This document shows positions 44,697-51,527 of a DNA stretch of 64,000 bases, in pieces. Position 1 is the first letter of the stretch; each line of letters starts with the position of its first letter. A program made the position numbers and the translations under genes. The stretch covers positions 2,713 to 66,712 of the forward strand of contig CALVDF010000013.1 in assembly GCA_944326245.1 (NCBI GenBank). Direction: 5' to 3'. The notes under the pieces were generated by a model. The model saw only the letters and a list, made by a program, of their open reading frames with translations, was not told where the DNA came from and did not search any database. Origin of the DNA: an uncultured Bacteroidales bacterium (GTDB lineage: Bacteria > Bacteroidota > Bacteroidia > Bacteroidales > UBA932).

Positions 44697-45455
44697 TCAG
44701 GGATTGAGCATGATGGTGTTGACGGTACGGCCGCAGGAGGGGCCTTCGCGGCGGGCTGAGAAGAAGCCGGGGTGGGAGTAGGTGTCGATGCCGGAGATGA
44801 GGATGTTGGGGTCATGGACACCGGCCCGGATGAGGGTCAGGCGGACGGCTTGGGGAAGGTCTATGTGGAGGCCGCCGGACATGGAGCCGGGGATGCGCGG
44901 GCCGCGGTCGGTGATAAGGCGGACAACGGTTTTGCCGGTGCTGGCCGTGCCGTAGTCATCAGTGTCCGGCCGGGACCATGTCTCAGGAAATCCGGCGGCG
45001 AGGAAGGCTTCGGCGACTTCCGGACCGACCTGGAAGCTTTCCGGGCCGATGCCGGGACCGATTACCGCCAGGATGTCGGCGGCGCGGGTGCCGTACTTGG
45101 AGGCCATCACAGCCAGGGTCTTGGCTGCGATTTTCAGCACCGTGCCCTTCCATCCGGAATGTACTGCCGCCACGACCCGCCGCACCGGATCGTACATCAG
45201 CACCGGTATGCAGTCAGCCGTCCGGGCCCCTATCGCAACGCCCGGCACGTCAGTTACCAGCGCGTCATAGCCCTCCAGCTCTTCCCGTGTAGTACCTGCC
45301 GAAGTCACCACGGCCACCCGGTCTCCGTGCACCTGATGTGCCTGCACCACCCTCATCGGCAGCACGGCGTCCCTCAGCGGGGAAAATGCCGTAACTTCAG
45401 GGGCTATGTCATATTTCAGCAGGCCGTCGGAACCGCTCGGGAAAATCTGTCTCAT
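44697..45455 (-). CDS. pgeF: polyphenol-oxidase/laccase-domain protein (PgeF/YfiH family)
   Basis: QAHQVHGDRV, ADCIPVL and HSGWKGT motifs are present. The ORF-track start at 45470 is a TTG, so I use the ATG at 45455 (MRQIFPSG). Confidence 0.85.
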   Translation of the reverse strand: MRQIFPSGSDGLLKYDIAPEVTAFSPLRDAVLPMRVVQAHQVHGDRVAVVTSAGTTREELEGYDALVTDVPGVAIGARTADCIPVLMYDPVRRVVAAVHSGWKGTVLKIAAKTLAVMASKYGTRAADILAVIGPGIGPESFQVGPEVAEAFLAAGFPETWSRPDTDDYGTASTGKTVVRLITDRGPRIPGSMSGGLHIDLPQAVRLTLIRAGVHDPNILISGIDTYSHPGFFSARREGPSCGRTVNTIMLNP

Positions 45456-45477
45456 CTCAGGCAAATACAATTTTCAG

Positions 45478-45485
45478 CAAAGTTA
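45478..45485 (-). promoter_or_regulatory. -7 promoter box (TAACTTTG on the minus strand) for pgeF
   Basis: The reverse complement of CAAAGTTA is TAACTTTG, 23 nt upstream of the ATG at 45455. Confidence 0.45.
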
Positions 45486-45509
45486 GGATACTTCTTTGAA
45501 AAATTTTTC

Positions 45510-45517
45510 TAAATTTG
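45510..45517 (+). promoter_or_regulatory. -7 promoter box TAAATTTG for the metX operon
   Basis: TAnnTTTG about 215 nt upstream of the metX ATG, which implies a long 5' leader. Confidence 0.5.
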
Positions 45518-45527
45518 TCTCCGCAAT

Positions 45528-45606
45528 GAGAAAGCACTCCAACATATCCATGATGTCCATGCGAATGCATCGCTCTTCGATGCATGGCTTTCTCTTTTGC
45601 CGGTAA
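45528..45606 (+). promoter_or_regulatory. candidate Met-rich leader ORF (45550-45606, MMSMRMHRSSMHGFLFCR) embedded in a nested terminator-like hairpin
   Basis: 5 of 18 codons are ATG. There is a perfect 8-bp hairpin at 45565-45585 and an outer 8-bp helix 45528-35/45587-94, followed by TTTT. It lies immediately upstream of a Met-biosynthesis operon. Confidence 0.45.
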
Positions 45607-45731
45607 GTCAAGCGGGATGCGGGCTCCGGCGTATTAATCCGAAAACATATCAAGTTGACTCCACAGTCCCGAATCTGCCCCGGGGCTGAGAATGGATTTG
45701 ACGTCAGGGCATCAATGGACATCGACAATCA

Positions 45732-46745
45732 ATGATACAGGCGGAATATATCCACGAAGAACCGTTCCGGTGCGAGGCCGGAGGTACAATCGACAATCTC
45801 AGAATAGTCTATCACATATCAATGCCGGGCGGCGGGCCCAGCAAGGTCATCTGGATCTGTCATGCGCTGACAGCCAATTCGGACCCGGAGGAATGGTGGC
45901 CGGAGATGGTGGGTCCGGGCCGGCTCATAGACACGGACCGCTACACGGTGGTCTGCGCCAATATGCTCTGCTCGGCCTACGGCTCCTCCGGTCCGGCGCA
46001 TGGCAGGTTCCTGGATTTCCCGAAGGTGACTGTCAGGGACATCGTCCGCACCGAGGCTCTCCTGCGCAGGCATCTGGGCATAGGCCGGATAGACCTGCTG
46101 ATAGGCAGTTCCATCGGCGGTTTCCAGGCTCTGGAATGGACGGTGATGGAGCCGGATGTAATCGCGCGGGCGGCTATCATGGCCTGCGGCCCCCGGGTTA
46201 CGCCCTGGCTGACAGCATCCAACGAGGCCCAGAGGATGGCCATCGAGGCCGATCCTACGTTTCGCGAGTGCCGCACCCTGAAAGGCGGAGCGGCAGGACT
46301 CCGTACGGCCAGGGCCATAGCCCTCATCTCGTACCGCAGCTATCGGGGCTACAACACCACTCAGAATGAGGAGGATCCCGACACCCTTTTCGCCACCCGC
46401 GCCGCCTCCTACGAGCGGTATCAGGGCCGCAAGCTCTCCGACCGTTTCGACGCCTATTCCTACTGGTACCTGACACATTCCGTGGACAGTCATAACATCG
46501 GCAGGGGCCGCGGAGGAGTGGAGGCAGCTCTCAGGAGCATCAGGACCCGCTGTGTCATCGTCGGCATAGACAGCGACGCCCTTTTCCCGACTCAGGAGCA
46601 GAAGTTCATGGCCCGCAACATCCCCAGGGCCGAGTATCACGAGATAACCTCGGCTTTCGGCCACGACGGCTTCCTGCTCGAATACGGCCAGATATCGGAG
46701 ATTCTCAGGCCGGAGCTGGAGGCTCTGGGAGGTAATCAAAAGTAA
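45732..46745 (+). CDS. metX: homoserine O-acetyltransferase
   Basis: 337 aa alpha/beta hydrolase with HALTANS, GSSIGGFQALEW (nucleophile elbow) and SAFGHDGFL motifs. Confidence 0.92.
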   Translation: MIQAEYIHEEPFRCEAGGTIDNLRIVYHISMPGGGPSKVIWICHALTANSDPEEWWPEMVGPGRLIDTDRYTVVCANMLCSAYGSSGPAHGRFLDFPKVTVRDIVRTEALLRRHLGIGRIDLLIGSSIGGFQALEWTVMEPDVIARAAIMACGPRVTPWLTASNEAQRMAIEADPTFRECRTLKGGAAGLRTARAIALISYRSYRGYNTTQNEEDPDTLFATRAASYERYQGRKLSDRFDAYSYWYLTHSVDSHNIGRGRGGVEAALRSIRTRCVIVGIDSDALFPTQEQKFMARNIPRAEYHEITSAFGHDGFLLEYGQISEILRPELEALGGNQK

Positions 46746-46764
46746 AATCAATAAAATCAAGTTT

Positions 46765-49227
46765 ATGCAGGTATTGAAATTCGGCGGCACATCTGTCGCA
46801 AACGCAGAGAATATGTCAAGGGTCGCGGATATAGTGACCAAGGCTGTGGACCGGGACAGGACCATTCTGGTCTGTTCGGCCATCAGCGGCTTTACCGACG
46901 CCCTCATCCGGACCGGCCGTCTGGCTGCGGCGCGGGATGAGGCTTACAAGAGTATCATAGACGAGTATCAGGAGAAGCATTACCGGATCATTCACAGCCT
47001 GATCCAGGCGGACAAGCAGCGCGGTACCCTAGAGGCGTGCGATGCGGTGTTCGAGTCGCTCAGAGGCATCGCCAGAGGAGTCTGCCTGTTGGGCGAGCTG
47101 AGCGAGGCCAGCCTGGATGCGATACAGGGCTGTGGAGAACTCCTGTCAACCAGGATAATGGCCGTCCGCCTGGCCTCGGAGGGTATTCCGGTCAAATGGG
47201 TGGATTCCCGCGAGATAATCCGGACAGTGCGCAAGGACGGGGTGAATGTGGTGGATACGGCTGTCAGCTACGCCAACATGGCGGCTATGCTGGAGCGCAA
47301 CCCGGTGACTTCCCTGTTTGTCCTTCCCGGATTTATTGCCTCCGACAGCCACGGCCGCACCACGACCCTGGGCCGGGGCGGCTCCGACTACTCGGCCTCC
47401 CTGCTGGCCGTGGGCTGCGGAGTGCGCCGGCTCGAGATCTGGACGGACGTGACAGGGATGATGACCGCCAACCCGAGGATTGTCCCCTCGGCCCGGACCA
47501 TCAGCAACATATCCTACCGTGCGGCTCTGGAACTCTCCCATTTCGGCGCGAAGGTCATCTATCCTCCGACCATACAGCCGGTGGTGTCGGAGGGCATTCC
47601 TATCTATGTGAGGAACACATTCTGTCCTGACGCCCCGGGCACCCTGATAGAGAAGAACCCGCCCCGGAGCAAGGAGAGGCTCGTGGGCATTTCCAATTCC
47701 GACAAGATAGCCCTCATCTCCCTGGAAGGCAGCGGTATGGTGGGAGTGCCCGGCTTCTCCGCCCGCCTTTTCGAGAGCCTGAGCCGCAGCGGGATAAGCA
47801 TCATCCTCATCACCCAGGCATCTTCGGTGAACACTATGTGTGTGGCCATATCGGAAAAAGACGCTGCAAAGGCCAAGGAGGCGGCCGACAGCTGCTTTGC
47901 CTACGAGATATCCCTGGGCAAGCTCAATCCGCTGAAAGTCGAGAAGGGCTTCTCGATAGTCTGTCTGGTGGGGGACGACATCATGAGCCAGTGCGGCACT
48001 ACGGGCCGGATGCTCGCCGCTCTTGGACGTCACGGCATATCCATAAGGGCCACGGCGCAGGGCTCTTCGGAGCGGAACATCTCCGTGGTGGTGCGCTCTG
48101 AGGAGGCGGACCGGGCCATCCGCTACATCCACAACGAGTTTTTCGACAGGACTCCGGCCCGGGACATCAACCTCTTCATCGCCGGTTACGGTACGGTCGG
48201 CAAGGCGCTGGTGGACATCATCCGCCGCAACGGAGACGCAATAGCAGCCCGCACCGGCAAACGGCTGCGGATCGCGGGCATTTCCAACAGCCGCCGCTAT
48301 GTGCTGGATACCGAGGGCATTTCTCCCGAGTGGACAGGTGAGCTGCTTGAAGGAGGGGTCAGTGCTGCGGACGATGCTTATTTCGAGGCTCTTGCCCACA
48401 CGTCTCTGGAAAACTCCGTGTTTGTCGACTGCACTGCCAGCGAGGATGTGGCCTGCAAGTATCCGCTGCTTTTCCAGCACGGCTACTCGGTGGTGGCCTG
48501 CAACAAGATAGCCTTCTCGTTCCCGTACTCCCAGTACCGTGCTATCCGCAGCTCGGCCTTGGAAAACGGCGTGAGCCTCAGATATGAGACAGCTGTCGGG
48601 GCGGCCCTGCCCGTGCTCGATGCCGTATCCCGGTGTGTCTGCAGCGGTGACCGGATTCACCGGATAGAGGCCGTGCTGTCGGGGACGCTCAACTATATTT
48701 TCAGTACTTATGACGGCGGTGCGGCGGTGACATTCGCCGATACCGTGCGGCAGGCTGTGGCTGCCGGATACGCCGAGCCGGACCCCCGCATTGACCTCAG
48801 CGGACGGGACGTGCTCCGCAAGCTGCTGATCCTCGCCCGGGAGGCCGGATTGCCTATAGAAGAGGAGGATGTGGCGGTGGAGCCCCTGCTGCCGGCAGAA
48901 TATTTTGAGGGCGGCACGGAGGATTTCTACCGCAGGCTGCAGGAGCATGAGCCGGAACTGGCGGCCCGGTACAGGGATGCTGCGGAGAAAGGGCTGCGGC
49001 GCCGGGTCGTGGCCTTACTGGAGCATTGCCCCGATGCGGCGACCGGGTACCGCGCCTCCATTGTCCTGAAGGAGGTGGGGGAGGACCATCCCCTGTTCAA
49101 CCTCTCCGGAACGGACAACGCTGTTCTCCTGGAGACGGATTTTTATCCCTCGCCGCTGGTGATTCAGGGTGCGGGGGCGGGAGCATACCAGACGGCTTCC
49201 GGTATATTGAACGATATTTTAAAATAA
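46765..49227 (+). CDS. thrA: bifunctional aspartokinase / homoserine dehydrogenase
   Basis: 820 aa. It has the MQVLKFGGTSVA kinase N-terminus, ACT-like middle segments and a homoserine dehydrogenase C-terminal half (GAGAGA...). Confidence 0.92.
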   Translation: MQVLKFGGTSVANAENMSRVADIVTKAVDRDRTILVCSAISGFTDALIRTGRLAAARDEAYKSIIDEYQEKHYRIIHSLIQADKQRGTLEACDAVFESLRGIARGVCLLGELSEASLDAIQGCGELLSTRIMAVRLASEGIPVKWVDSREIIRTVRKDGVNVVDTAVSYANMAAMLERNPVTSLFVLPGFIASDSHGRTTTLGRGGSDYSASLLAVGCGVRRLEIWTDVTGMMTANPRIVPSARTISNISYRAALELSHFGAKVIYPPTIQPVVSEGIPIYVRNTFCPDAPGTLIEKNPPRSKERLVGISNSDKIALISLEGSGMVGVPGFSARLFESLSRSGISIILITQASSVNTMCVAISEKDAAKAKEAADSCFAYEISLGKLNPLKVEKGFSIVCLVGDDIMSQCGTTGRMLAALGRHGISIRATAQGSSERNISVVVRSEEADRAIRYIHNEFFDRTPARDINLFIAGYGTVGKALVDIIRRNGDAIAARTGKRLRIAGISNSRRYVLDTEGISPEWTGELLEGGVSAADDAYFEALAHTSLENSVFVDCTASEDVACKYPLLFQHGYSVVACNKIAFSFPYSQYRAIRSSALENGVSLRYETAVGAALPVLDAVSRCVCSGDRIHRIEAVLSGTLNYIFSTYDGGAAVTFADTVRQAVAAGYAEPDPRIDLSGRDVLRKLLILAREAGLPIEEEDVAVEPLLPAEYFEGGTEDFYRRLQEHEPELAARYRDAAEKGLRRRVVALLEHCPDAATGYRASIVLKEVGEDHPLFNLSGTDNAVLLETDFYPSPLVIQGAGAGAYQTASGILNDILK

Positions 49228-49236
49228 ACATACCTT

Positions 49237-50538
49237 ATGAAAAGAAATTACAGATTCGAGACCCTGCAGGTCAGGGCGGGACAGGAGATTGATCCGGTGT
49301 CCAAGGGCACGGCTGTGCCTATCTATCAGAGTACTGCATACGTTTTCGACGACATGGAGTACGGCAAGGAACTGTTTGAGCTCAAGAAGGCGGGCAATAT
49401 CTACACCCGCATCACCAACACTACCAACGAGGTGTTCGAGAAGCGCATGGCGGCTCTTGAAAACGGCGTGGCGGCCACGGCGACGGCTTCGGGGCAGTCG
49501 GCGGTGCTGCTGAGCATCCTCAATATCGCCGGCCCCGGGGACAATGTAGTGACCTCCCCCTTCCTCTACGGCGGCACCTTCACCATGTTTGCCATCACCC
49601 TCAGGGACATGGGTATAGAGATGCGTTTCGCAGCCAGCGACAGGACGGAGGACCTGGAGGCGCTGGTGGACGGCAGGACCAAGGGCATCTTCATAGAGAA
49701 TCTGGCCAATCCGGCGTTCAGCATCCCGGACTTCGAGCCGATAGTGGAGATGGCCCGCCGTCACGGTATCTGCGTTCTGGTGGACAATACCTTCGGTATG
49801 GCCGGGTGGCTGCTGCGGCCGGTGGACTGGGGCTGCAACGTGGTCATCCATTCGGCGACAAAATGGATCTGCGGCCACGGTACGGCTCTCGGCGGAGTGG
49901 TAGTGGACGGCGGCAATTTTGACTGGACTCCGGAGAAATACCCTCTGCTGGCGGCTTCCTCGGAGAGCTATCACGGGGTGGTGTACACCGATGTGTTCGG
50001 GCGCGGGGCCTTCGCCGGCAGGGTGAGGGTGGACGGCCTGCGCAATCTCGGCCCGGCTCCCTCCCCGTTCAACTCCTTCCTGATGCTCCAGGGCCTGGAG
50101 ACTCTCTCGCTCAGGGCAGAGCGCTGCTGTGACAATACCCTCGAGGTGGCCCGTTTTCTCCAGCGTCATCCGGCTGTGGAGAGTGTCAACTACCCCGGGC
50201 TCGAGGACAATCCCTATCACGCACTGGGCTGCAAGTACCTCCGGGGCGGCTTCGGCGGAGTGCTCACTTTCAGGGTCAAGGGCGGATTCGACGCCGCCGC
50301 GGCTCTGGTGGACCGTCTGGAACTGATCCTGCACGTGGGCAGCGTCGGGGATGCCAAGTCCCTGATAGTGCATCCGGCCTCGACGACCCACTCCCAGCTG
50401 AGTCCTTCCGAGCAGGTGGCCGCCGGGGTATATCCCAACATGCTGCGGCTGTCGGTCGGTATCGAGCATGTGGATGACCTGATCTATGATCTGGAGAATG
50501 CGTTGAACTCTTTGGGAAAACAGGAGGTGCGGAAATGA
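49237..50538 (+). CDS. metY: O-acetylhomoserine aminocarboxypropyltransferase (sulfhydrylase)
   Basis: 433 aa PLP enzyme. HSATKWICGHG contains the PLP Lys, and the Cys/Met-metabolism family N-terminus FETLQVRAGQ is present. Confidence 0.92.
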   Translation: MKRNYRFETLQVRAGQEIDPVSKGTAVPIYQSTAYVFDDMEYGKELFELKKAGNIYTRITNTTNEVFEKRMAALENGVAATATASGQSAVLLSILNIAGPGDNVVTSPFLYGGTFTMFAITLRDMGIEMRFAASDRTEDLEALVDGRTKGIFIENLANPAFSIPDFEPIVEMARRHGICVLVDNTFGMAGWLLRPVDWGCNVVIHSATKWICGHGTALGGVVVDGGNFDWTPEKYPLLAASSESYHGVVYTDVFGRGAFAGRVRVDGLRNLGPAPSPFNSFLMLQGLETLSLRAERCCDNTLEVARFLQRHPAVESVNYPGLEDNPYHALGCKYLRGGFGGVLTFRVKGGFDAAAALVDRLELILHVGSVGDAKSLIVHPASTTHSQLSPSEQVAAGVYPNMLRLSVGIEHVDDLIYDLENALNSLGKQEVRK

Positions 50539-51527
50539 AAGTGGCAGTAGTAGGCGCCACCGGACTGGTAGGCGCTGTTATCCTGAAAGTATTGGAAGAA
50601 AGACAATTCCCGGTCTCGGAGCTGCTGCCGGTGGCTTCGGAGCGGTCGGTGGGGCGGACGGTGCGCTTCGCCGGCTCCGAAGTGCCGGTGGTGAGTGCGG
50701 AGACAGCCCTGGCGGCCCGGCCGCAGATAGCCCTTTTCTCCGCCGGGGCCGCGGTCTCCCGGAAGCTGGCTCCCCGTTTTGCCGCCATCGGATGCCGGGT
50801 GGTGGACAATTCCTCCTGCTGGCGGATGGACCCCTCCGTCCCGCTGGTGGTGCCTGAAATCAACGGCGATGTGCTGGGTGCGTCGGACATGATCGTCGCC
50901 AATCCCAATTGTTCCACGATCCAGATGCTCCTGCCCCTGGCGCCCCTGCACCGCCGCTGGGGTATCCGCCGTATCGTGGTCTCCACCTACCAGTCGGTCT
51001 CCGGGACGGGTTACAAGGCCCTGGCGCAGATGGAGGCTGAGCGGGCCGGCCGTCAGTGGGGAGAGTATCCGGCGGTCTATCCCCATCCGATAGACCTGAA
51101 CATCCTGCCGCATATCGACGATTTTCTGGACAGCGGCTACACCAAGGAGGAGATGAAGATGGTCAATGAGACGCATAAGATCCTGGCCGATCCCGGTATA
51201 GCCGTGTCTCCGACGACAGTCAGGGTACCGGTTACCGGAGGTCATTCCGAATCCGTCAACGTGGAGCTGTGCCGGGATTTCGACCTTTCCGAAGTGCGTT
51301 CCGTCATTGCTTCCGCCCCCGGCTGCGTCCTGCAGGATGACCCGTCAGCCGCCGTTTATCCTATGCCGTTGTACGCCCAGGGGCGGGACGAGGTCTTCGT
51401 AGGCCGCATCCGCCGCGACCCTACCGTCCCCTACGGCCTTAGCCTCTGGTGCGTAGCCGACAACCTCCGCAAGGGGGCCGCTGTCAATGCCGTGCAGATT
51501 GCCCAGCTGCTGTTGCAGTACGTGTAG
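50535..51527 (+). CDS. asd: aspartate-semialdehyde dehydrogenase
   Basis: 330 aa with MKVAVVGATGLVG (Rossmann fold) and NPNCSTIQM (active-site Cys). The start overlaps the metY stop. Confidence 0.95.
   Translation: MKVAVVGATGLVGAVILKVLEERQFPVSELLPVASERSVGRTVRFAGSEVPVVSAETALAARPQIALFSAGAAVSRKLAPRFAAIGCRVVDNSSCWRMDPSVPLVVPEINGDVLGASDMIVANPNCSTIQMLLPLAPLHRRWGIRRIVVSTYQSVSGTGYKALAQMEAERAGRQWGEYPAVYPHPIDLNILPHIDDFLDSGYTKEEMKMVNETHKILADPGIAVSPTTVRVPVTGGHSESVNVELCRDFDLSEVRSVIASAPGCVLQDDPSAAVYPMPLYAQGRDEVFVGRIRRDPTVPYGLSLWCVADNLRKGAAVNAVQIAQLLLQYV

Follow-up and report, generated by a model that had tools for sequence, protein, structure and literature searches.

A conserved leader open reading frame upstream of metX operons in Bacteroidales: a candidate methionine sensor that pairs with the metX start

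Introduction

What does the long 5´ region in front of the metX-thrA-metY-asd operon of an uncultured Bacteroidales bacterium (UBA932) do, and could it sense methionine? The sequence under study is a 64,000-nt stretch of contig CALVDF010000013.1 (the window, at its full length), and the element in question is the metX leader at 45510-45731, which extends from a promoter box to the base before the metX start codon. Methionine genes are known to be controlled by S-adenosylmethionine (SAM) riboswitches, by T-boxes or by the MetJ, MetR or McbR proteins. The original prediction, made from the window alone, proposed a further type of control, a methionine leader-peptide attenuator composed of a Met-rich short open reading frame (ORF), a terminator-like hairpin and mutually exclusive folds. 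Its claim of novelty agrees with the literature searched, in which we found no published methionine leader-peptide attenuator and no description of a methionine leader peptide or of a met attenuator from Bacteroidetes. In the present analysis, the central idea of the prediction appears probably right, while its terminator and antiterminator mechanics find no support as stated. It had also overlooked that the body of the ORF pairs with the metX start region, which points to translation initiation as the main output.

Results

A leader family is conserved upstream of metX

Taken alone, the window sequence exhibits nothing above chance. The folding z-score of the leader is -0.84, and a terminator scan returns one site against 0.9 expected (over 20 kb, 19 sites against 13.9 +/- 3.7). 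It is the cross-genome comparison that decides. A scan for MetX relatives with one genome per species yielded 80 metX loci, which derive from Candidatus Coprenecus, Candidatus Cryptobacteroides and unnamed Bacteroidales in gut and rumen assemblies. Metagenome contigs were additionally scanned by the leader pattern with no gene used as a guide. The leader is present at 27 of the 80 loci and at 13 further distinct metagenome loci, beside which the pattern scan gave near-identical copies and 13 chance hits; in total, about 31 distinct lineages bear a leader (single loci are denoted by L numbers below). Exactly one copy per carrying locus was detected with nhmmer, and none in the other 53 loci. 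Outside the window's own clade, the MetX proteins of the carriers are 55-71% identical to the window MetX. At the level of sequence, the comparison confirms that the leader is a real family conserved across lineages, and the comparison of metX upstream regions that the original prediction had called for revealed a Met-clustered short ORF and a hairpin conserved upstream of orthologous operons. When the 64-kb window was scanned for other leader ORFs directly after a -7 box, nothing comparable was found.

The members share one layout. From 5´ to 3´, a TAnnTTTG box is followed after 8-12 nt (mostly 8-10) by an ATG, approximately 12 codons and the invariant sequence CGA AUG CAU CG(N); a loop of 5-7 nt then precedes an invariant GAUGCAU. 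The box is located at this distance 5´ of the conserved ATG in about 27 of the 31 lineages. The exceptions are L022, L094 and L120, with no box at that spacing, and L086, in which a near-consensus box ends in A. In the window, the Bacteroidetes-type -7 box and the metX ATG at 45732 lie where the original prediction had placed them. The transcript is predicted to start near G45523, which would leave the leader ORF nearly leaderless.

Two observations concern single loci. The same leader-metX locus was found at the ends of two contigs of one assembly (L002 and L005; URSC01000002.1 and URSC01000004.1), which looks like an assembly repeat or a strain mixture. The MetX of L041 (BRZ_BR bin117) is 100% identical to that of the window over the part covered.

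The leader ORF carries signatures of translation and is rich in Met codons

The frame originally assigned to 45550-45606 (MMSMRMHRSSMHGFLFCR-stop) is present, but it begins further upstream. The ATG at 45526, in frame and 8 nt after the -7 box, is the start that relatives keep, rather than 45550, and the ORF comprises 26 codons with internal Met codons at 45550, 45553, 45559, 45565 and 45580. Most lineages encode a 16-codon peptide (e.g. MKKSSFISMMSKRMHR) that is ended by a TAA in the hairpin loop. The window clade has no stop in the loop, and its frame passes through the hairpin and the T tract to 45606. An exact look-up did not find the leader peptide in the protein collection.

Several features suggest that this short ORF is translated. 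Insertions and deletions in its body measure +3, +3, -3, +12 and +99 nt, while the distance from the box to the ATG stays fixed. Across lineages, no stop occurs in frame 0 and 58 occur in frame 1. The stop itself appears to be maintained: a TAA is present in the loop in 23 lineages, and a TAG stands right after the 3´ arm in all six lineages that lost it, compared with none of these 23 (Fisher p = 4e-5). The stop position shifts by 3 or 10 codons in several lineages, the window included. From codon 2 to the CGA there are 62 ATG triplets, every one of them in the ORF frame, and CAT triplets lie in the other frames.

Met makes up 16-18% of the body residues, followed by Lys (13-14%) and Ile (12%). 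Counted from the CGA, codon -4 is Met in 16 lineages, Val in six, Leu in four and Ile in two; codon -3 is Met in 20, Lys in four, Leu in three and Thr in one; and codon -1 is Met in 12, Lys in 11, Ile in three and Thr in two of 28. The AUG after the CGA is invariant, and several lineages have extra Met at codons 2-3. In variant leaders, the Met positions are occupied by Lys, Thr and Ile, which are other products of the aspartate family. Two independent lineages with no metY in the operon have no Met at -4, -3 or -1 (IALLSI and ITITST). This codon pattern resembles that of regulatory codons, though the counts are low and come from related lineages.

Two variant loci were observed individually. 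At L095 (Ga0172377_10001939), the leader precedes metX-thrA-asd and reads MMSSSHITITSTRMHR, with Met codons changed to Ile and Thr. At L094 (OFJB01000128.1), on the minus strand of the locus, a leader lies ~130-290 nt upstream of a metY-like gene. Its ORF has 49 codons, of which 12 are Thr and six Ile (MHNKSLIEDLICGTTTASISFCMTTTLNTGITSNITTSATTIASMRMHR), and ends in SMRMHR-stop at the invariant hairpin with the TAA in the loop. A possible terminator/antiterminator pair is located further 3´, and the contig ends 614 nt past the hairpin. More Thr-rich leaders of this kind were sought; the homologues of the MetY fragment are only ~70% identical and carry no such leader.

Complementarity between the ORF body and the metX start

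Codons -7 to -5 hold a motif, UUCAUAUC, that is conserved down to the nucleotide; in many lineages it complements GAUAUGA(A) at the start codon of metX. We refer to this pairing as the anti-start helix. Compensatory changes in the two strands were observed in L108 (UCAUAUCAAUG:CAUUGAUAUGA), L021 (UUCAUAUCUGUC:GACAGAUAUGG) and L095 (CAUAACAAU:AUUGUUAUG). Pairing of the ORF body with positions -45..+15 of metX beats shuffled sequences (p <= 0.05) in 18 of 29 lineages, and cognate leader/start pairs outscore non-cognate ones in 5000 of 5000 permutations. A second test used a fixed register, in which an ungapped alignment is anchored only on the CGA and the metX AUG. Paired cells amount to 57.1% in this register, compared with 52.7 +/- 1.2 after shuffling (0/500) and 34-48% in slid registers; cells with double changes number 34 against 22.4 +/- 3.6 (2/500), and the covariation score is 0.138 against 0.097 (1/500). 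A GAT right before the metX ATG occurs in 10 of 29 leader lineages and in one of 32 leaderless loci (p = 0.002). At L094, where metY takes the place of metX, pairing of the ORF body with the metY start is not significant (p = 0.29).

The register of the window differs from the motif described above: UCCAUGAUGUCC pairs with GGGCAUCA-AUGGA over 12 bp. This helix is part of the minimum-energy fold, with an ensemble pair probability of ~0.68. The partner forms an island that is conserved between the window and L007-L009, and its flanks have diverged. The island holds the ATG of a six-codon mini-ORF whose stop overlaps the metX ATG (Table 1), and translational coupling of this mini-ORF to metX is possible. 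In L007-L009 the ATG equivalent to that of the mini-ORF is in frame with metX, and L111 and L118 have similar mini-ORFs.

The geometry of a stalled ribosome was computed on the assumption, based on established footprint data, that it covers ~12 nt on the 5´ side of the P site and 15 nt on the 3´ side. With codon -4 or -3 in the A site, the ribosome covers the anti-start strand and leaves the following hairpin intact; with codon -1, the invariant AUG or the stop codon in the A site, it removes that hairpin.

Hairpins, an outer helix and a T-rich tract complete the leader

The perfect 8-bp hairpin ATGCATCG-CTCTT-CGATGCAT at 45565-45585 and the TTTT at 45595-98 are both present as originally described. 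The arms of this hairpin (hairpin 1) are identical in 31 of 31 lineages, with a pair probability of 0.8-0.99 in the window, and its loop varies in sequence and length. The tract that follows is T-rich in 23 of 31 lineages, among which L101 and L120 have a canonical terminator with a 9-bp stem and then U5. It is missing in the other eight. An RNAalifold consensus and constrained folds were searched for a conserved antiterminator, and none was found, the best candidate being UGAUG:CAUCG of 5 bp, which is not universal; other partners for the arms of hairpin 1 were sought as well, and none was convincing. No conserved alternative terminator fold was found either, so the mutually exclusive terminator folds of the original prediction were not recovered. 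The pairing of CCATGC (45557-62) with GCATGG (45582-87) on which they drew does exist in the window, but it needs an ATG at codon -1, which 12 of 28 lineages have. Simple occlusion of the terminator by a stalled ribosome also fails for part of the ORF, as a stall at 45550 or 45553 leaves the hairpin intact and would give the wrong sign for those codons.

The outer helix of the prediction, GAGAAAGC (45528-35) with GCTTTCTC (45587-94), is present and recurs in other lineages with lineage-specific complementarity. In this helix (P0), which includes the leader start codon, pairing is significant (p < 0.05) in 11 of the 31 lineages, cognate partners outscore non-cognate ones in each of 5000 permutations, and compensatory changes were observed among L062, L111, L118 and L109. 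P0 and the anti-start helix are alternatives in the nested ensemble of the window, with probabilities of 0.29 and 0.68, respectively. A further hairpin (hairpin 2) lies 3´ of the tract; its stem has five pairs with compensatory changes and its loop is conserved (~20 lineages). The GCAUC within the 5´ arm of hairpin 1 complements this loop. Hairpin 2 was also considered as the true terminator and discarded, a T tract being present 3´ of it in one clade only.

Additional elements were observed in the stretch from hairpin 2 to metX. In the window, ACATATC occurs a second time at 45645-45651, a copy conserved in L006-L009, and an A-rich RAAUCA motif recurs in this interval across the family. The GC-rich hairpin CAGUCCCG...CGGGGCUG (45657-45692) lies inside a longer predicted stem of the window, in the 3´ half of its leader, and is partly conserved in L007-L009. 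L101 and L120 possess a different covarying hairpin of 7 bp, ~15 nt before metX.

The Arg codon 5´ of the invariant Met (45562-45564 in the window) is CGA throughout the 31 lineages, never CGU, CGC or AGA, and its third base is paired in the hairpin in only about one quarter of them. In yeast, decoding is slowed at the codon that follows an I:A wobble in the P site. By analogy, CGA would sensitise the invariant AUG through such a wobble, which we regard as a lead rather than a result.

Table 1. Positions of the leader elements and of the genes of the operon in the window.
Feature	Position	Strand	Remark
-7 promoter box TAAATTTG, Bacteroidetes-type	45510..45517	+	sequence
P0 5´ strand GCAAUGAGAAAGC, including the leader start codon	45523..45535	+	pairs with 45587-600
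Leader ORF MRKHSNISMMSMRMHRSSMHGFLFCR, 26 codons and stop	45526..45606	+	comparison
Anti-start strand UCCAUGAUGUCC, spanning codons -5 to -2, two of them Met	45547..45558	+	pairs with 45707-45719
Hairpin 1: CGA AUG CAU CG, loop, (C)GAUGCAU	45562..45585	+	8-bp stem at 45565-45585
Pyrimidine/T-rich tract GCUUUCUCUUUUGC	45587..45600	+	3´ strand of P0; possible terminator U-tract
Hairpin 2 (GCCGG...CCGGC), apical loop C-GGGAU-G	45599..45630	+	~20 lineages
Anti-start partner GGGCAUCAAUGGA, just upstream of metX; holds the mini-ORF ATG	45707..45719	+	conserved island
Mini-ORF ATGGACATCGACAATCAATGA (MDIDNQ-stop), 6 codons	45715..45735	+	TGA overlaps metX ATG 45732
Regulated operon metX-thrA-metY-asd	45732..51527	+	
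metX, MetX-like homoserine O-acetyltransferase	45732-46745	+	ATG at 45732; NCBIfam
thrA, aspartokinase/homoserine dehydrogenase I	46765-49227	+	NCBIfam
metY, O-acetylhomoserine sulfhydrylase	49237-50538	+	
asd, aspartate-semialdehyde dehydrogenase	50535-51527	+	

The leader and an Lrp/AsnC-type gene occupy different metX loci

The best NCBIfam matches of the window MetX are homoserine O-acetyltransferases, yet they stay under the equivalog cut-offs; ThrA scores 851 bits against a cut-off of 726. A pgeF-like gene lies upstream on the other strand, so the leader occupies a divergent intergenic region. Across the family, the leader precedes operons of the type metX-thrA-metY-asd, metX-metY-asd or metX-thrA-asd, the sole exception being the leader 5´ of the metY-like gene at L094.

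A gene for an Lrp/AsnC-type regulator adjoins or lies near metX at 15 of the 53 leaderless loci and at none of the 27 leader loci, which suggests that the two are interchangeable regulatory solutions. The metX operon has a short 5´ region in relatives that carry this gene. The gene encodes 155 aa (MEKLDKIDILILRELQKDAKLTTKELAAK...) and is divergent from the metX operon or close to it. It was observed ~150-300 nt upstream of metX on the opposite strand at L015, L018, L019, L020, L026, L028, L031, L032 and L044, and it is also present at L035, L057, L059, L060 and L067.

Discussion

A model in which a stalled ribosome unmasks the metX start

The comparison shows conservation of the leader, signatures of translation, enrichment of Met codons, and helices with covariation. 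The reading that we favor, to which we assign a probability of roughly one half, is that the leader encodes a leader peptide sensing charged Met-tRNA and mainly unmasking the metX start, to which hairpin-dependent termination may add. In this model, transcription would begin a few bases before the ATG at 45526, as suggested by the -7 box, and a ribosome would translate the short leader ORF. When the ORF is empty, the anti-start helix would keep initiation at metX low; in the window, the partner is the start of the mini-ORF that overlaps the metX ATG. The Met codons at -4, -3 and -1 and the invariant AUG after the CGA lie within the anti-start strand or just 3´ of it. When charged Met-tRNA is scarce, the ribosome would stall at these codons and hold the anti-start strand in its mRNA channel, and a stall at -1 or +1 would hold the 5´ arm of hairpin 1 as well. 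The metX start would then be free as it is transcribed, and the operon would be expressed. When methionine is plentiful, the ribosome would reach the stop at the hairpin and leave, the anti-start helix would form, and expression would fall. Hairpin 1 and the T-rich tract may add premature termination, which a ribosome at -1 or +1 would block. Some lineages have Lys, Thr or Ile codons at these positions, and the limiting tRNA there may be that for Lys, Thr or Ile. As modeled, unmasking of the start gives the right sign for all enriched codon positions. What we infer is where transcription starts, that the ribosome stalls, in which direction expression responds, and how translational and transcriptional control are balanced.

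Several points weigh against this model. The anti-start helix of the window is borderline compared with shuffled sequences (p = 0.053), the register of the helix varies among lineages, and 11 of 29 lineages are not individually significant. In many lineages Lys, Val or Leu replaces Met, and three lineages keep the invariant Met only. Some of the Met codons sit in helices (AUG:CAU within the anti-start helix, AUGCAU within hairpin 1), so the abundance of Met could be partly structural. Part of the synonymous variation covaries with the metX start and is for that reason not counted as coding evidence. Stalling accounts neither for the invariance of hairpin 1 and the CGA nor for the conserved hairpin 2, to which the model gives no part. 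P0, which crosses the anti-start helix, is transcribed before it and may affect the kinetics. The counts are not phylogenetically independent, and the whole account is computational, for an organism known from metagenome assemblies only.

Other explanations of the leader

Two other readings retain the helices and the ORF in different roles, and we consider both unlikely. Classical transcription attenuation alone, the mechanism of the original prediction with control confined to transcript elongation, would make hairpin 1 and the T tract a terminator that a Met stall prevents, either directly or via an antiterminator. The T-rich tract in 23 of 31 lineages and the canonical terminators of L101 and L120 fit such a mechanism, as do the removal of the hairpin by a ribosome with its A site at -1 or the invariant AUG and the restriction of codon -1 to Met, Lys, Ile or Thr. 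However, no conserved antiterminator was found, eight of 31 lineages have no T-rich tract, and in this genome the terminator-like score does not exceed chance. At -4 and -3, where Met is most enriched, a stall leaves the hairpin in place and would raise termination, opposite in sign to the response expected of a biosynthetic operon. The composition of the tract is due in part to its own pairing to the purine-rich 5´ end within P0, and judging from footprint sizes, a ribosome close behind the polymerase would block the hairpin whatever the methionine supply. Similarly doubtful is a structured switch formed by P0, the anti-start helix and hairpins 1 and 2 and operated by an RNA-binding protein, a small RNA or the general translation rate. 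The ORF would be translated in such a switch, and its Met codons would be by-products of the AUG/CAU complementarity from which the helices are built. It would explain why the arms of hairpin 1 and the CGA are invariant beyond the needs of coding and pairing, why the C-GGGAU-G loop of hairpin 2 is conserved, why GAUG/CAUC boxes are repeated in the ORF, in the arm of the hairpin, in the loop of hairpin 2 and 5´ of metX, and why Met interchanges with Lys, Val or Leu. It does not explain why all 62 internal ATGs are in frame, also at codons 2-3 where no helix requiring them was found, or why the stop codon is under selection; moreover, the variable loop of hairpin 1 argues against loop recognition, and no candidate partner is known.

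The remaining readings are less probable still. The nascent peptide could itself be the sensor, as in TnaC, which arrests with tryptophan, and SpeFL, which arrests with ornithine. Here, the C-terminal F/Y-I-S-x-x-S-x-R-M-H-R-stop would arrest the ribosome on the invariant hairpin with free methionine or SAM, the stop coming at once or within three codons of RMHR; we regard both the sensing and this arrangement of the arrest as quite improbable. The peptide is conserved across lineages whose MetX is only 55-65% identical to that of the window, Ser -2 is invariant and uses all four wobble bases, RMHR is invariant, and a stop is kept at or right after it. The helices, however, explain much of the nucleotide conservation: RMH lies inside hairpin 1, the F-I-S codons lie inside the anti-start helix and covary with their partner, and CAUAUC pairs with GAUAUG of metX at covarying wobble positions. 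The shifts of the stop by 3 or 10 codons, in the window among others, and the retention of SMRMHR alone after a different, Thr-rich peptide in L094 also argue against an arrest sequence, and an arrest on the hairpin at high ligand would open it, an effect of the wrong sign should the hairpin be a terminator. If such an arrest were nonetheless true, it would be the first bacterial metabolite-sensing arrest peptide of the methionine/SAM pathway, and the invariance of CGA-AUG-CAU-CG would reflect the peptidyl-transferase center and exit tunnel, not RNA pairing alone. Very unlikely is either a T-box or a riboswitch, from a known or a new class, with SAM, S-adenosylhomocysteine (SAH) or methionine as its ligand, beside which the ORF would be incidental. 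The gene context is typical of SAM riboswitches, and the leader has covarying helices and conserved loops; signatures of translation are unexpected for an aptamer. At gathering score, Rfam 15 models matched only tRNA and rRNA in the window, 18 leader-bearing loci and 20 leaderless loci, and at E <= 10 they gave nothing relevant on the 421-nt region 45380-45800, so the exclusion of known riboswitches and T-boxes, which the original prediction had asked for, holds. Least probable is that the ATGCATC-N-GATGCAT palindrome is a DNA operator at which a dimeric transcription factor forms a roadblock just past the promoter. The inverted repeat is perfect, invariant and near the promoter, but its half-sites are 5 nt apart in most lineages and 7 nt apart in the window clade, which changes the helical phase. 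Conservation moreover spans the whole transcribed ORF with codon periodicity, and the motif occurs once per locus, as a single site in 64 kb. On the variable spacing and the coding periodicity, we reject this reading.

Implications

If the stalling model is true, methionine joins the amino acids that are sensed by ribosome stalling, probably together with other products of the aspartate family. Initiation in Bacteroidota is not led by the Shine-Dalgarno sequence, and the model would show how such sensing is wired in this phylum, with the start codon region sequestered and the sensor ORF nearly leaderless. The leader and the Lrp/AsnC-type gene would offer two alternative solutions that can be compared in close relatives. 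The family defines an unannotated gene of 16-26 codons and a regulatory RNA of ~200 nt in abundant uncultured gut Bacteroidales, and may provide a compact, testable part for methionine-responsive expression in Bacteroides. For annotation, it serves as a warning that this long 5´ region is not empty.

Comparison with known systems

The element is best filed with the leader-peptide attenuators, as a putative methionine-specific member from Bacteroidales. Its closest parallels combine a short ORF with control of a downstream start. In mycobacteria, ribosomes stalled in leaderless poly-Cys short ORFs block folds in which the ribosome-binding site further downstream is sequestered (bioRxiv 10.1101/834739, Canestrari et al.). 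Both systems have a leaderless or nearly leaderless short ORF as the first cistron of a biosynthetic operon, rich in codons for the product, and in both a stalled ribosome is proposed to block a structure sequestering the start of the next gene, which is translational attenuation. The regulatory codons differ, being Met here (Lys, Thr or Ile in variants) and Cys there, with two to five dispersed codons in place of a run. The present system belongs to Bacteroidota, does not rely on a Shine-Dalgarno sequence and would sequester the start codon region itself; it adds an invariant hairpin with the stop in its loop, P0 and hairpin 2, and is known from sequence alone. In the actinobacterial LEU element, a run of Leu codons pairs with leuA's Shine-Dalgarno box (Seliverstov et al. 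2005, PMC1262725). There, as here, the region of the regulatory codons pairs with the initiation signal of the structural gene, and the helices cross in a pseudoknot-like manner. The amino acid, the phylum and the sequence are different, and the pairing of the metX leader covers the AUG and the preceding bases instead of a Shine-Dalgarno box.

With the classical attenuators (the trpL, hisL, thrL, pheL, ilv and leu leaders and Bacteroid-trp RF01692), the metX leader shares a codon-enriched short ORF and a hairpin with a T-rich tract before the first gene, and the thr leader likewise uses several amino acids (Thr and Ile), as do some variants here. Unlike these attenuators, it exhibits no conserved antiterminator, matches no Rfam leader family, and has its stop in the hairpin loop, not before region 2. 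Its most Met-rich positions would not mask the hairpin, and its ORF pairs with the downstream start codon. The ermC and cat leaders resemble it in that a ribosome stalled in a short ORF frees a sequestered downstream start. Their stalling is triggered by an antibiotic, requires specific nascent-peptide motifs and acts through a chain of alternative hairpins, 1:2, 2:3 and 3:4, whereas the ORF here pairs directly with the start region. The window clade additionally recalls pyrBI of E. coli, in which the ORF likewise spans the hairpin and the T tract and a closely following ribosome would prevent the hairpin. In pyrBI, however, UTP is sensed via polymerase pausing, and most members of the present family have their stop codon in the loop of the hairpin.

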